Below, piece by piece: positions 6,582 to 9,845 of a DNA stretch of 64,000 nucleotides (position 1 is the stretch's first letter; every line of letters begins with the position of its first letter). The DNA comes from Candidatus Poribacteria bacterium (GTDB lineage: Bacteria > Poribacteria > WGA-4E > WGA-3G): contig OZ243938.1 of the NCBI GenBank assembly GCA_965214095.1, positions 2,752,001 to 2,816,000 on the forward strand, written 5' to 3'. The position numbers and the translations under genes are program-made. The notes beneath the pieces are model-generated. The model ran no database searches. It was not told the origin of the DNA and worked only from the letters and a program-made list of their open reading frames with translations.

Positions 6582-7484
6582 TCAATCCTGTTTCGGTTGT
6601 GTTTTCCACCGATTGTGAAGCCAAAGCCACTGATCCGGATATTTCTGTATGTATTTTTCCAACTCTTTAACAAGAAACGTTGTATATTCTATAACATCGG
6701 TTTCTGTATCACCAGATGAATCCAAATAGATTGGTGGAGAGATGTAGACATGATGTTGGTCATTTGGTTGCCGTATATCTAATGTAAATAGGATCGGCGT
6801 ATCGGTTTTCAATGCTATTGTTACGGGTGCTCTGGATGTGGATGCGGGTTTGCCAAAGAACTCAATGAATATTCCTTGCTCTCCTGCATTCTGATCAGCA
6901 AAAAACCCGACAGCTTCATTATTTTTTAGGGCACGTAGTGTTGCGCGAATAGCGTTTTTTCTCGGTATAAGTTTTAGACTCAGACGTTCTCTATTACGGC
7001 AAATATAAGCATTCAGTTTCTCATTTTTTAAAGGAAATGCGATGGCTGTTGCCCGGTTTGGAATGAGTACTCCCCAAACGAGTGAGAGAAGTTCCCAATT
7101 CCCAAAATGTGTTAAAACTACGATGACTCCTTTGCCTTTTTCAAATGCTGCATCAAGATGCTCTCTGCCTTCAACTGAAACTTCCTCCCAGATATTGTCA
7201 GGATTCAGTTTGGTGAAACGCATGAATTCAATGATTGTTTTACTGAGATTTATAAAACTTGCTTTACACATATCACGCCGCCTGTCTTCGTCCATGTCGT
7301 TTCCGAAGGCAATCTGTAAGTTATTGAGTGCGATCTGTTTGCGTTTTTTGAGGGTGCGATAGAGAAGTTTACCAATTCCTGTGCCGAGGGACATTGCCCA
7401 TTTCTTGGGTAGGAGACGGCAAACCCAACCAAAGATCATAACGAACTGATATACTGCACTGTCCTTCAATTTGTTTCGCGTCAT
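6582..7484 (-). CDS. lpxL: Lipid A biosynthesis acyltransferase (LpxL/HtrB family)
   Basis: HFGNWE catalytic motif, FFADQ, FFGKPA, PDQWLWLHNRWK. Confidence 0.85.
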   Translation of the reverse strand: MTRNKLKDSAVYQFVMIFGWVCRLLPKKWAMSLGTGIGKLLYRTLKKRKQIALNNLQIAFGNDMDEDRRRDMCKASFINLSKTIIEFMRFTKLNPDNIWEEVSVEGREHLDAAFEKGKGVIVVLTHFGNWELLSLVWGVLIPNRATAIAFPLKNEKLNAYICRNRERLSLKLIPRKNAIRATLRALKNNEAVGFFADQNAGEQGIFIEFFGKPASTSRAPVTIALKTDTPILFTLDIRQPNDQHHVYISPPIYLDSSGDTETDVIEYTTFLVKELEKYIQKYPDQWLWLHNRWKTQPKQD

Positions 7485-7518
7485 TGTATATGTATTTTTC
7501 CTGAATGTCTGATAATAT

Positions 7519-7700
7519 CTAATTCTATTGATAGTTCTCCGATGATATTAACCTGTATATATCCGTGCGATACTATGTATTTCACATCTTATACGGTTTG
7601 CAAGTTACTCATAGAGAGTAACCAGGGTTCATCTACCAAAGCACGCAGGAATATCCCACGTGCGCCATTCAAGTCTCTGTTCATCTTGCGTCCTGTGCTA
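7519..7700 (-). ncRNA. Predicted omegaRNA/reRNA of the IS607 TnpB (scaffold at the right end, guide from the flank); boundaries approximate
   Basis: Hairpins GTTACTC/GAGTAAC (7604-7622) and nested CCGTATA..GTGAAATAC-ATA-GTATCGCAC..TATACAGG lie just inside the right end; location inferred from TnpB biology. Confidence 0.5.
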
Positions 7701-9172
7701 TCTTTGATTATCTTGCGTCCACCGAGTGATTTTCTCATCTCACCATTCCAAGAAACTGTTTTTGATGTGTATGCTTCACAGACATCAACGATGATAGATC
7801 CAGTTTCTTTCGCTTTATGTTTTAGGAACTGTTTGAATCTGTAGTGAGAGAGTGTCAACATTTGTCGGACAGACCTCTTGCGTAGTTTGCGTTTTCCACG
7901 CATTACCATATCTGAAGTCTCAAATGTTGGGAGTAAGATAATATCAAAGGTATCTACAAGGTATCGTGCGACTTTATGATGCAATTCATCTACAAGATTT
8001 CTTATACGTGTGCGTATTCTGTTTGCAGCACGTCTCATATTCTTGCGTGATTGTCTATTTGCTTTAGCTGCACGAGATAATAGGTCATCGAGATATGAAC
8101 AGAGTCTTTGAATCCGATTGATAGCATGGTGTCCAAGCCATCCGAAACCACGCTCATGAAAATATGTGAGGAATGTTCTCACGCCAGGGTCTAAAGCAAC
8201 AACACGTCCGTTTGGCTTTCGCTTCGGAGTTGTCACAGTATAGGAAACACAGAGATAGTATTTATCATTCTCTTTCACGAGGCGTGAGTCACAGATATTA
8301 TCAGGTAACATCTCTGACATTTTGAGGTGTCCCAGCAAGGTGTGGTAAACACCTTGTTTTTTTATGGAAGACTTTGGAATGAAAATACTAGCTGAAGGGT
8401 GCCGTTTAGATTTGAAAGACACAGATTGAAACGCACCTGTTTTCTGACATTTTTGCTTTGCTGCTCTAACAGCAATACAAGCATCACGGATAGCAATAGA
8501 CTTTATCTGATACGGCGTTTCTTTGCTCCAATCAGGTAGATCGTGAAGAATACCTGTTTTTATCGCTTTCCAATTCGCTTTTGTGTCTGTTTCGTTCAAC
8601 AAAGCAACCGTTTTGTTGTAGGTAAAACGTGCTGTGCCAAACCACTGCCGAAGCGTTTCACGTTGTTCTGTTGTTGGATAAACTCTTATCTTCTTTGATT
8701 TTGTCACGGTAACTTCTGAGTCCGTGCATCCGGCTACTGAAGACATGCAGGATTGCGAGAAGATCCTGCGTGAGTTCTTCTTGTGGACTGTGCTCTGTTT
8801 GATCGAGAACCACGAGTTCGCCACCGTTTTGTTCAATGAGGTATCGTACAAGGTCGATATCGAATCGGGCGAGCCTATCCCGATGGGCAATAACAACTTG
8901 GAGCTTATCACCTTGCATAAGCCGTTCCAATAAGGTTCTAAGCCCTTTCCTTTTGAAGTTGATACCGCTTCCGATGTCTTTGATAACTTCTGCTTCGGGG
9001 TATATGCTTCGTATATACTCAACTTGTCGTTCGAGGTCATCTCTTTGCTTTGTGCTGGATACTCTGCAGTAGCAAACAGTTGCAATTGATTTGGATTTGC
9101 TTTTGATGTATCCTTCAACATCATAGCGTCTGTGTCCGCCTCCTGTGCGGATATATTCAATCTTTCCTTCAT
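7589..9172 (-). CDS. tnpB: TnpB RNA-guided nuclease, pro-Fanzor-like IS607 type; true start uncertain
   Basis: KIRVYPTTEQ...WFGTARFTYN, RuvC-I VALDPG, RuvC-II region IILLPTFE, EAYTSKT, RuvC-III NRDLNGARGI. Confidence 0.88.
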   Translation of the reverse strand: MKERLNISAQEADTDAMMLKDTSKANPNQLQLFATAEYPAQSKEMTSNDKLSIYEAYTPKQKLSKTSEAVSTSKGKGLEPYWNGLCKVISSKLLLPIGIGSPDSISTLYDTSLNKTVANSWFSIKQSTVHKKNSRRIFSQSCMSSVAGCTDSEVTVTKSKKIRVYPTTEQRETLRQWFGTARFTYNKTVALLNETDTKANWKAIKTGILHDLPDWSKETPYQIKSIAIRDACIAVRAAKQKCQKTGAFQSVSFKSKRHPSASIFIPKSSIKKQGVYHTLLGHLKMSEMLPDNICDSRLVKENDKYYLCVSYTVTTPKRKPNGRVVALDPGVRTFLTYFHERGFGWLGHHAINRIQRLCSYLDDLLSRAAKANRQSRKNMRRAANRIRTRIRNLVDELHHKVARYLVDTFDIILLPTFETSDMVMRGKRKLRKRSVRQMLTLSHYRFKQFLKHKAKETGSIIVDVCEAYTSKTVSWNGEMRKSLGGRKIIKDSTGRKMNRDLNGARGIFLRALVDEPWLLSMSNLQTV

Positions 9173-9244
9173 TTGCTAACTTCCTCAAATGGTCGGGGTA
9201 TAATCCAGCAGTTCACTTGCTTTACGTGCTGATACATAAGCCAT
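8658..9244 (-). pseudogene. tnpA: IS607 TnpA serine recombinase with a 1-nt frameshift in the N-terminal HTH
   Basis: ATG 9244 gives MAYVSARKASELL then runs into TGA; the shifted frame continues LYPDHLRKLANEGKI...RTGGGHRRY...YCRVSS..QRDDLERQ, DIGSGIN, RDRLARF. Confidence 0.8.
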
Positions 9245-9539
9245 ATAATAGCGGACTACAAATCCAGATAAATATCAAGAAAAATATAGATATTTAGATA
9301 CTGTTACTCAACCCTTTGAAGTAGAATGTAAGAGGCGCAATGAATTGCGCGACTACAAACCGACTATTTCTTAAAGGGTATGTTGTTTTTTAGAAATGGT
9401 ATAATATCTTGTTTGTCAATGATTAGAGTATATCATACATAGTTGTTGAAGACAACTGGTAGGATAGGACAAATTATTTTCAACTTGATAGGTTTCTATA
9501 TGCGTGGTAGAATTAACCTAAAGATAAGGAGGCATTAAA

Positions 9540-9845
9540 ATGGCAGAAACAGTGAGAACGGACATCAAAGGTATTGATCGGTTTATTCTTGAAGAAGGAA
9601 CAGACAGAAATGTCCTCAGTCTACATATATCCGAAGTTGGTCCGGGACAACGCGCGCACCCGCCGCATACGCATGATGGACAAGAAATTTTCTATGTTTT
9701 TTCTGGAGAGGGTGAAGTGCTATTTGGAGAACAGACGCATTGCATCAGTGATAATGAAGCTGTGCATGTTGATTGCCAAGTATTGCATGGTATCCGAAAT
9801 GTCGGTGAAACGCCTCTCCGATATGCTGTGATTATTGCGCGTTAA
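9540..9845 (+). CDS. Cupin-domain protein
   Basis: HPPHTHDGQEIFYVFSGEG and HGIRNVG cupin motifs; AGGAGG RBS. Confidence 0.85.
   Translation: MAETVRTDIKGIDRFILEEGTDRNVLSLHISEVGPGQRAHPPHTHDGQEIFYVFSGEGEVLFGEQTHCISDNEAVHVDCQVLHGIRNVGETPLRYAVIIAR

Follow-up and report, generated by a model that had tools for sequence, protein, structure and literature searches.

An IS607 element whose tnpB gene overlaps tnpA

A 64,000-nucleotide stretch of a Candidatus Poribacteria chromosome (GenBank assembly GCA_965214095.1, contig OZ243938.1, positions 2,752,001 to 2,816,000; referred to here as the window) contains a 1774-bp insertion sequence (IS) of the IS607 type on its reverse strand, running from GTTGAG to CATCGG with ends that are fixed to within 1-2 nt owing to runs of G. 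The features of the IS607 family are present, namely a serine recombinase, TnpA, with an N-terminal helix-turn-helix, a tnpB gene downstream on the same strand, several copies in the genome and defined ends, and the element is a real and largely ordinary copy of this family. Its tnpB frame stays open from 9172 through the tnpA stop codon at 8658, giving a 515-nt overlap in which tnpB occupies the +1 frame of tnpA. The shared DNA is under purifying selection in both frames, and the conserved part of the resulting TnpB extension is, judged by alignment and modelled fold, the bacterial counterpart of the N-terminal domain (NTD) of Fanzor2. An earlier note on this DNA had listed the tnpB open reading frame (ORF), the DPG of RuvC-I, the Pro at RuvC-II, the RDLNGARGI of RuvC-III, the overlap at 8658-9172 and the motifs PYWN and NSWF, all of which were found again at the same positions.

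The host genome (5.2 Mb in 4 contigs) holds 5 copies of the element at 94-95% identity, and their similarity breaks off at 9312 and 7539; identical ends recur in 13 Poribacteria loci. The tnpB ORF of the window copy is intact, and its tnpA is broken. A 1-nt deletion in a run of C near 9195-9197, private to the window copy, shifts the frame between the helix-turn-helix start (ATG 9244) and the catalytic part (9188..8658), so that the helix-turn-helix 'MAYVSARKASELLDYTPDHLRKLANEGKI' is frameshifted here and intact in the sister copies L003-L005. These carry the extra base of the C run, as do related contigs (at 9195/9197), and have an intact tnpA ORF of 195-200 aa. The deletion may be a homopolymer assembly error. 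In this copy the tnpA start and the TnpB extension lie in one frame. A programmed frameshift that would link them was considered and rejected, as the arrangement is caused by the private deletion. Both genes are intact in L004 and L005, and L003 (G000:C1:3362085-3363859) has a 1-nt deletion in a run of A of tnpB just past the alternative RuvC-II Glu, which truncates the nuclease.

Table 1. Features of the IS607 element and its flanks (window coordinates)
Feature	Position	Strand	Basis
IS607-type insertion sequence	7539..9312	-	Alignment of 5 copies; 13 Poribacteria loci with common ends
tnpA, IS607 serine recombinase, broken here	8658..9244	-	Pfam Resolvase PF00239, E 1e-19 (ORF 8658..9188)
tnpB, pro-Fanzor-type RNA-guided nuclease, 527 aa	7589..9172	-	Pfam HTH_OrfB_IS605, OrfB_IS605, Cas12f1-like_TNB
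TnpB residues 1-78, tail predicted to be disordered	8939..9172	-	pLDDT <50; frame kept open, sequence unconserved
TnpB residues 79-155, conserved N-terminal domain over the tnpA catalytic half	8708..8938	-	Conserved residues, stop depletion, fold alignment
P415, canonical RuvC-II Glu position	7928..7930	-	Alignment to canonical-type TnpB chain; conserved at >=90%
E466, alternative RuvC-II Glu	7775..7777	-	Invariant in 56 homologues; aligns with ApmFz2 E467
omegaRNA-like scaffold, 188 nt	7539..7726	-	RNAalifold consensus; overlaps tnpB 3' end, finishes at IS right end
Presumed guide, length assumed	7518..7538	-	Flank 3' of right end, differs among copies
Left flank AAGG, presumed TAM/target motif (RRRG)	9313..9316	-	13 Poribacteria loci
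pLDDT, predicted local distance difference test; TAM, transposon-adjacent motif.

Selection in both frames of the overlap

In canonical IS607 and IS605 elements, tnpB is not known to overlap tnpA by more than a short stretch, if at all. Hundreds of homologues of the window TnpB are 500-600 aa long and align with it from residue ~10-40 to ~515, down to roughly 32-35% identity. Among 80 genome loci from Poribacteria, many cyanobacteria, Latescibacteria, Dehalococcoidia and Caldilineaceae, tnpB lies in the +1 frame of tnpA in 79, and the frame is open for at least 130 codons upstream of the TnpB core in 71. Viral contigs give a similar picture, with a same-strand TnpA-like match in 73 of 80 loci and tnpB in its +1 frame in 72 of these 73.

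Synonymous-codon shuffles of tnpA lead to an expectation of 2-8 stops per locus in the +1 frame, yet none are present in 40 of the 50 loci with a tnpA of intact length, while the +2 frame is close to expectation. Stops were also counted across 46 non-redundant loci (TnpA no more than 80% identical), which were chosen only by intact-length tnpA, blind to the +1 frame, and compared with shuffles preserving both the TnpA protein and codon usage. From tnpA codon 95 to the end, the +1 frame contains 2 stops where 153.5 are expected and is free of stops in 45 of 46 loci (1.7 expected); over codons 25-95 it contains 25 stops against 77.3 expected, with 33 of 46 loci stop-free (8.1 expected). The +2 frame shows 319 stops against 350.1 from codon 95 to the end (stop-free in 0 of 46 loci, 0.0 expected) and 214 against 228.6 over codons 25-95 (2 of 46, 0.3 expected). 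The depletion of +1 stops in distal tnpA excludes a frame that is open by chance.

Constraint is also visible at the wobble positions of tnpA. Over 40 non-redundant loci, the third positions of conserved four-fold codons have an entropy of 1.27 bits in tnpA (39 columns), compared with 1.79 bits in the tnpB core (63 columns; Mann-Whitney p 5e-9). The lowest values in tnpA lie beneath PYWN and NSWF (0.00-0.57 bits), with 0.00 and 0.29 bits at the two Val codons which, in the tnpB frame, yield the W and F of NSWF, and the first ~50 tnpA codons are unconstrained at 1.55-1.66 bits. Third-position diversity among the 5 copies of the host genome is 0.082 in tnpA under TnpB residues 1-78 and 0.045 under residues 79-171, compared with 0.115 in the tnpB core. 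Given the stop depletion that is confined to the +1 frame, the constrained tnpA wobble sites and the invariant residues of the new frame, both frames are under purifying selection across the shared DNA, and the dual coding proposed in the earlier note is supported.

The extension also outlives the gene beneath it. In 13 of the 18 genome loci where the tnpA frame closes early, at least 150 extension codons are still open. Six viral loci (L092, L117, L120, L121, L134 and L162) have an intact extension of 81-84 aa with the PYWN and NSWF motifs, and their other frame is a recognisable TnpA with 6-15 stops. L155, a Fanzor2-like relative on an IMG/VR contig of 174 kb with a GC content of 0.29, has KKRKR at its N-terminus and combines a zinc finger with the PYW and NSWF motifs. 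Its other frame shows no trace of TnpA, and the locus may represent the end point of this series from overlap to fossil.

Sequence and probable start codon of the extension

The extension divides into a tail and a conserved domain (Table 1). In the latter, PYWN occupies residues 80-83 (8935-8924) and is followed by a helix at 84-92, and NSWF occupies residues 119-122 (8818-8807) and is followed by a strand at 123-128. Residues S120 and W121 show no change in any of 56 homologues, at identities as low as 32%, and W82, L93 and F122 are conserved in at least 90%; the earlier note had made its reading depend on conservation of the WN and SWFS motifs, and this was found together with a stop-depleted overlapping frame. 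An AlphaFold model of the window TnpB has a mean pLDDT of 74, with a confident core, values of 83 and 76 for the blocks of helix 84-92 and strand 123-128, and low values between them.

In 26 of 40 loci, the open frame has its first ATG at column 29 or 31 of the TnpA alignment, formed from the conserved 'LRKY' codons of the helix-turn-helix and lying behind AGGA(A/G). In the window, GAGGAAG and 7 nt precede ATG 9172, which suggests from the sequence context that translation of TnpB starts at this codon inside tnpA. RNA-library contigs from four runs of three studies, 90-95% alike to the element, span most of it, and none is identical to the window copy.

Alternatively, the extension may be left untranslated, with TnpB starting at an internal Met just ahead of the core and the open frame being a by-product of a conserved tnpA and its codon usage. 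Some database entries and loci show only forms of 370-390 aa, and the first 78 residues show no sequence constraint. An untranslated extension is nevertheless very improbable, given that shuffles which keep the TnpA protein and codon usage predict far more +1 stops than the 2 observed, that S120 and W121 vary as little as the catalytic residues, that the frame is open even over broken or fossil tnpA, and that the segment matches, in sequence and fold, a domain resolved in a Fanzor2 structure.

Correspondence to the N-terminal domain of Fanzor2

This domain is known from the structure of ApmFz2, the mimivirus L79 Fanzor2 (PDB 9b0l; Schargel et al., NSMB 2024, PMC11832414), whose NTD at residues 53-130 is described there as unique among TnpB structures. 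According to the same account, residues 1-53 are a disordered nuclear localisation signal (NLS), residues 65-91 form a RuvC-R segment that completes the RuvC fold, Asn82 and Ser83 touch the pseudoknot of the omegaRNA at its C(-191):G(-3) pair, and residues 109-130 form a thumb that clasps the target DNA.

ApmFz2 is the best match of the window TnpB in both sequence and fold. A single-sequence search of the PDB gave 9b0l an E-value of 6e-26, compared with 0.03 for ISDra2 TnpB, and left the extension unaligned; a 56-sequence profile gave 7e-67 compared with 2e-17 and aligned the extension, from position 113 only, placing NSWF on L79 N82-S83-W84-Y85 with high posterior probability. Foldseek ranked 9b0l first (E 2e-23). 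Structural alignment with VIA-align paired model residues 78..517 with residues 53..518 of the 9b0l chain (Z 27.2, root-mean-square deviation 4.2 over 406 residues), whereas alignments with other TnpB, Cas12f and Cas12 chains nearly all start near model residue 154 and none starts before 115. A structured segment equivalent to RuvC-R plus thumb is thus present ahead of the TnpB core, and residues 79-155 are, by sequence alignment and predicted fold, homologous to the Fanzor2 NTD and its bacterial counterpart, as the earlier note had surmised when it linked the extension to the Fanzor2 N-terminus.

Both proteins have an NSW[FY] motif in the NTD, a disordered N-terminal tail and an equivalent catalytic Glu (E467 in ApmFz2, E466 here). 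ApmFz2 keeps a zinc finger and has an NLS in its tail, whereas the window TnpB lacks the zinc finger and its tail is not basic. In host and localisation signal the window protein therefore differs from Fanzor2, as the chromosome is that of a Poribacteria bacterium and residues 1-78 are without a KKRKR-like basic cluster of the type seen in L155.

It is conceivable that the extension is translated and selected but has its main role elsewhere, for example in coupling or balancing the expression of TnpA and TnpB or in binding TnpA. The overlap ties the two genes together, their starts lie ~70 nt apart on one mRNA region, and the window TnpB has no clearly basic character where it matches the basic thumb of Fanzor2. 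However, the domain persists unchanged in loci without tnpA and its most conserved residues align with the Fanzor2 residues reported to contact the omegaRNA (PMC11832414), making a different main role improbable.

The order of events could also be reversed, with an older TnpB NTD coming first and tnpA being overprinted on it later. Nothing specific favours this, and the TnpA frame encodes a standard Resolvase-family domain, which is widespread outside IS607 tnpA/tnpB elements. The fold matches to TnpB and Cas12f other than Fanzor2 begin at the core, and the 7 canonical TnpBs encoded in the host genome have 323-420 aa, 6 of the 7 being without the SW motif. Taken with the account of ApmFz2, in which the NTD occurs in no other TnpB structure (PMC11832414), these observations leave the reverse order scarcely credible. 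The NTD most likely arose by overprinting of tnpA.

Catalytic residues and placement in the pro-Fanzor clade

The core of the window TnpB has Pfam matches to HTH_OrfB_IS605 (residues 157-194), OrfB_IS605 (309-414) and Cas12f1-like_TNB (443-507). RuvC-I is represented by DPG (D328-P329-G330, 8191-8183), which is invariant in 56 homologues, and the RDLNGARGI of RuvC-III starts at R499-D500, with D500 at 7675-7673. In the RuvC-II segment 'DIILLPTFETSDM', P415 occupies the canonical Glu site, and the profile string 'IllPtF' pairs with 'IAVEDL' of a canonical-type TnpB chain. The earlier note had pointed to a Glu a few residues past this Pro. Such a residue exists, E418 in 'TFETS', but it differs between homologues and has no equivalent in L79, whereas E466 is invariant and aligns with ApmFz2 E467; E418 was rejected on these grounds as the relocated catalytic residue. 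D328, E466 and D500 are all invariant in the 56 homologues, and D324A and E467A are the dead mutants of ApmFz2 (Jiang et al. 2023, PMC10530073).

A scan for CxxC found none past E466 (VSWN...KDST), and all four Cys of the zinc finger are missing in the window TnpB and its nearer relatives, indicating that the C4 zinc finger has been lost. Among the sequences used for the phylogenetic tree described below, 28 rows are without the zinc finger and 35 are with it (33 and 2 GVMAG rows).

Pro-Fanzors have been defined by a DPG motif and an alternative Glu six residues ahead of the first zinc-finger CxxC, and were identified with the search expression DPG x(120,160) E x6 CxxC x(12,18) CxxC x(4,8) D (Yoon et al. 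NAR 2023, PMC10711439). As far as they are described there, pro-Fanzors share with the window TnpB the DPG, a homologous relocated Glu, an IS607 serine-recombinase partner and a closer relationship to Fanzor2 than to canonical TnpB, and in both cases many of the relatives are cyanobacterial. In the window TnpB, the canonical RuvC-II Glu is absent and the alternative Glu lies just upstream of the zinc-finger position, and the Resolvase domain of the partner lies directly upstream, an arrangement that is repeated in 80 of 84 genome loci. Because the zinc finger is lost, the published expression, which is that paper's identification tool and not its concept of the clade, cannot find the window TnpB.

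A phylogenetic tree of 70 rows and 430 columns was obtained by a quick LG+G4 search, with support from the Shimodaira-Hasegawa-like approximate likelihood ratio test (SH-aLRT) only, some extension columns kept, and two GVMAG loci in place of named Fanzor references. The family with DPG and the alternative Glu forms one side of a split that has 100% SH-aLRT support, and the 7 canonical TnpBs from the host genome form the other. The window sequence lies deep in a zinc-finger-less clade (27 such rows and 1 other, support 99) that is nested among zinc-finger-bearing members, and a GVMAG-labelled locus sits at the base of the family; the label, carried by two IMG/VR loci, is taken here to denote a giant-virus metagenome-assembled genome (MAG). 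On this nesting, the window element belongs to a derived, zinc-finger-less side branch of the pro-Fanzor clade and is not a Fanzor ancestor. Membership of the clade, as put forward in the earlier note, is thus upheld by the DPG, the alternative Glu, the profile scores and the 100% split, whereas the ancestral role is not. The note describes the clade as mostly cyanobacterial; sequence comparison shows that the pro-Fanzor-type clade is much wider and includes Poribacteria, Latescibacteria, Dehalococcoidia, Caldilineaceae and viral contigs.

The loss of all four zinc-finger Cys, together with the frameshifts in tnpA of the window copy and in tnpB of L003, could mean that the window copy, or even the entire zinc-finger-less subclade, is a decaying or nuclease-dead passenger. 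This is considered unlikely, as the triad D328/E466/D500 is invariant throughout the subclade, which is large and extends over several phyla and viral contigs. Variation in the tnpB core is biased towards third positions (0.115, compared with 0.026-0.029), L004 and L005 keep both genes intact, and zinc-finger loss has already been described in large TnpB branches (Altae-Tran et al. 2023, PMC10691335).

Guide RNA scaffold, presumed guide and presumed target motif

The right end of the element contains an omegaRNA-like scaffold with a conserved multi-stem fold. A covariance model built from 9 Poribacteria sequences had 94 matches (E <=0.01) when run against 100 other loci, and almost every match lies at the tnpB 3' end. 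In the model-fitted alignment, 87.2% of cells are paired, compared with 62.4% when shuffled and 41-46% when slid, and 47 of 50 pairs show compensatory changes. A long-range helix pairs the 5' CGGUG with the last CAUCG ahead of the right end (80.9% paired, covariation in 5 of 5 pairs) and resembles the omegaRNA of ApmFz2, in which a 5' region is reported to pair with positions -4 to 0 (PMC11832414). The Fanzor2 omegaRNA reaches ~200 nt beyond the ORF, whereas the right end here lies only 50 nt past the tnpB stop codon. An Rfam scan of 7300-9600 returned two matches at chance level, and neither the omegaRNA nor the flanking repeat was assigned to a known family.

The flank at 7518..7538 is presumed to act as the guide because of how TnpB and Fanzor2 work. 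On the opposite side, the left flanks of the 13 Poribacteria loci have purines at positions -4 to -2 in 11, 13 and 13 of 13 and G at -1 in 12 of 13, from which RRRG is inferred as a putative target motif or TAM. The TAM of ApmFz2 is reported to be GGG (PMC11832414).

Host genome, flanking repeat and derivative elements

The 10 best relatives (60-95% identity) of a neighbouring lipid A acyltransferase-like gene are all from Candidatus Poribacteria MAGs, in agreement with the host named in the earlier note, a bacterium of a sponge-symbiont lineage. The left end of the IS adjoins a repeat of ~77-87 nt (window 9314-9400), of which ~35 more chromosomal copies exist at 81-91% identity. The repeat has a hairpin-rich fold (z -3.55) and no Rfam match, and insertion of the IS appears to have taken place at the end of a repeat copy.

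Two shorter relatives of the element lack protein genes. The miniature element L200 (G000:C1:3164013-3164292, ~280 nt) has both ends of the IS and, between them, a sequence that matches the omegaRNA model over its full length (115 bits); its left flank is GAAG. The second, L201/L008 (G000:C1:~1573353-1573510), has an omegaRNA and right-end match, its left end lying outside the comparison. Both are candidates for mobilisation and guide supply in trans. A Poribacteria locus on OZ244616.1 (L011) is longer, at 2195 bp, with ~420 bp extra between the extension and the TnpB core and a split nuclease ORF. An RNA-library contig of 647 nt (run X21) has the IS right end (7538 joint) fused to 9164 in tnpA, right after AAGG, together with pieces of the left end, and looks like a miniature derivative inside another copy of the same IS.

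The host genome also contains at least 15 canonical TnpB-type open frames (341-421 aa; loci L168-L179) that keep the zinc-finger domain. With these beside the pro-Fanzor-type copies, it is rich in OMEGA-type elements of several families.

Discussion

The account that is preferred here, with an overall probability of about 85%, is that of an IS607 element with a pro-Fanzor-type TnpB, the NTD of which was overprinted on tnpA and is the counterpart of the Fanzor2 NTD. TnpB would most likely be translated from ATG 9172, within tnpA and in its +1 frame, and residues 1-78 would form a disordered tail, followed by a small domain (79-155) made from the DNA of the TnpA catalytic half. The NSWF segment is predicted to lie against the RuvC fold and in contact with the omegaRNA pseudoknot; the part ahead of the core would rest on the target DNA. 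The core would cut DNA via D328, the relocated E466 and D500, without a zinc finger and beside a purine-rich RRRG, and the 3' omegaRNA scaffold would finish at the right end of the element. Residues 79-155 are probably needed for guide-RNA binding, and trimmed or mis-annotated forms of 370 aa may consequently be inactive.

Several points weigh against this account. The zinc finger is lost and tnpA is frameshifted; the window copy may be non-autonomous, and its nuclease activity is predicted only. Translation of the extension is predicted only, and the RNA-library contigs, which may include DNA, are no proof of a transcript and reveal neither its ends nor its strand. The extension is modelled with no more than moderate confidence, at pLDDT ~76-83 in two islands and low values in between. 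PYWN is tied to Fanzor2 by fold alignment alone and NSWF by both sequence and fold, because HMMER pairs L79 from profile position 113 only. The tree comes from a quick search under LG+G4, has SH-aLRT as its only support, includes no named Fanzor references and keeps part of the extension columns, and the covariation of the scaffold was counted on an alignment fitted to the model, which is itself partly coding sequence.

Beyond Fanzor2 and the pro-Fanzors, the closest known system is ISDra2 TnpB (8h1j/8exa), which shares the WED-REC-RuvC core fold (Z 26.4, from model residue 154) and a guide RNA at the 3' end but has a Glu where the window has P415, a C4 zinc finger and no NTD. The overlap itself recalls overprinted genes of viruses and mobile elements, in which a new frame likewise lies over an older gene, both are selected, and the new product is rich in disorder. 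Unlike overprinted accessory proteins, the new frame in the window is the NTD of the downstream nuclease and outlives the gene beneath it.

Among the papers listed in a literature search, none links TnpB/tnpA to overprinting, though locus drawings could show an overlap that is left unworded. The word 'overlap' is absent from the main texts of Yoon et al. (PMC10711439), Bao and Jurka 2013 (PMC3627910) and a 2026 OMEGA review (PMC13565253), the figures or supplements of which could still show one. The main text of Yoon et al., taken without its supplements, does not contain 'N-terminal', and the text of Jiang et al. (PMC10530073) uses 'overlap' twice, neither time about tnpA. Among the main texts searched, the term 'RuvC-R' was found only in the ApmFz2 paper (PMC11832414), which, in the part available, does not trace the NTD to bacteria or to tnpA.

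It is considered likely that the NTD that distinguishes Fanzor2 was born de novo in bacterial IS607 elements, by upstream extension of tnpB through tnpA in the +1 frame, that the nested pair travelled to phages and giant viruses, and that the decayed tnpA persists as an out-of-frame fossil that is the coding sequence of a nuclease domain. An overprinted neighbouring transposase gene would provide a concrete and testable origin for the one structural feature that sets Fanzor2 apart from bacterial TnpB, and the series is visible from elements of bacteria, phage-like contigs and a giant-virus MAG in which the overlap is complete, through fossil tnpA, to loci without any trace of tnpA. Pro-Fanzors are common in sponge-symbiont phyla and viral contigs, beyond cyanobacteria, and the published search expression overlooks a large zinc-finger-less branch of them. 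The overlap genetically interlocks nuclease and transposase, which bears on the co-evolution of these partners. If the account is true, the alternative frame of a recombinase gene supplies a genome-editing nuclease of a eukaryotic virus with a functional domain that contacts RNA.

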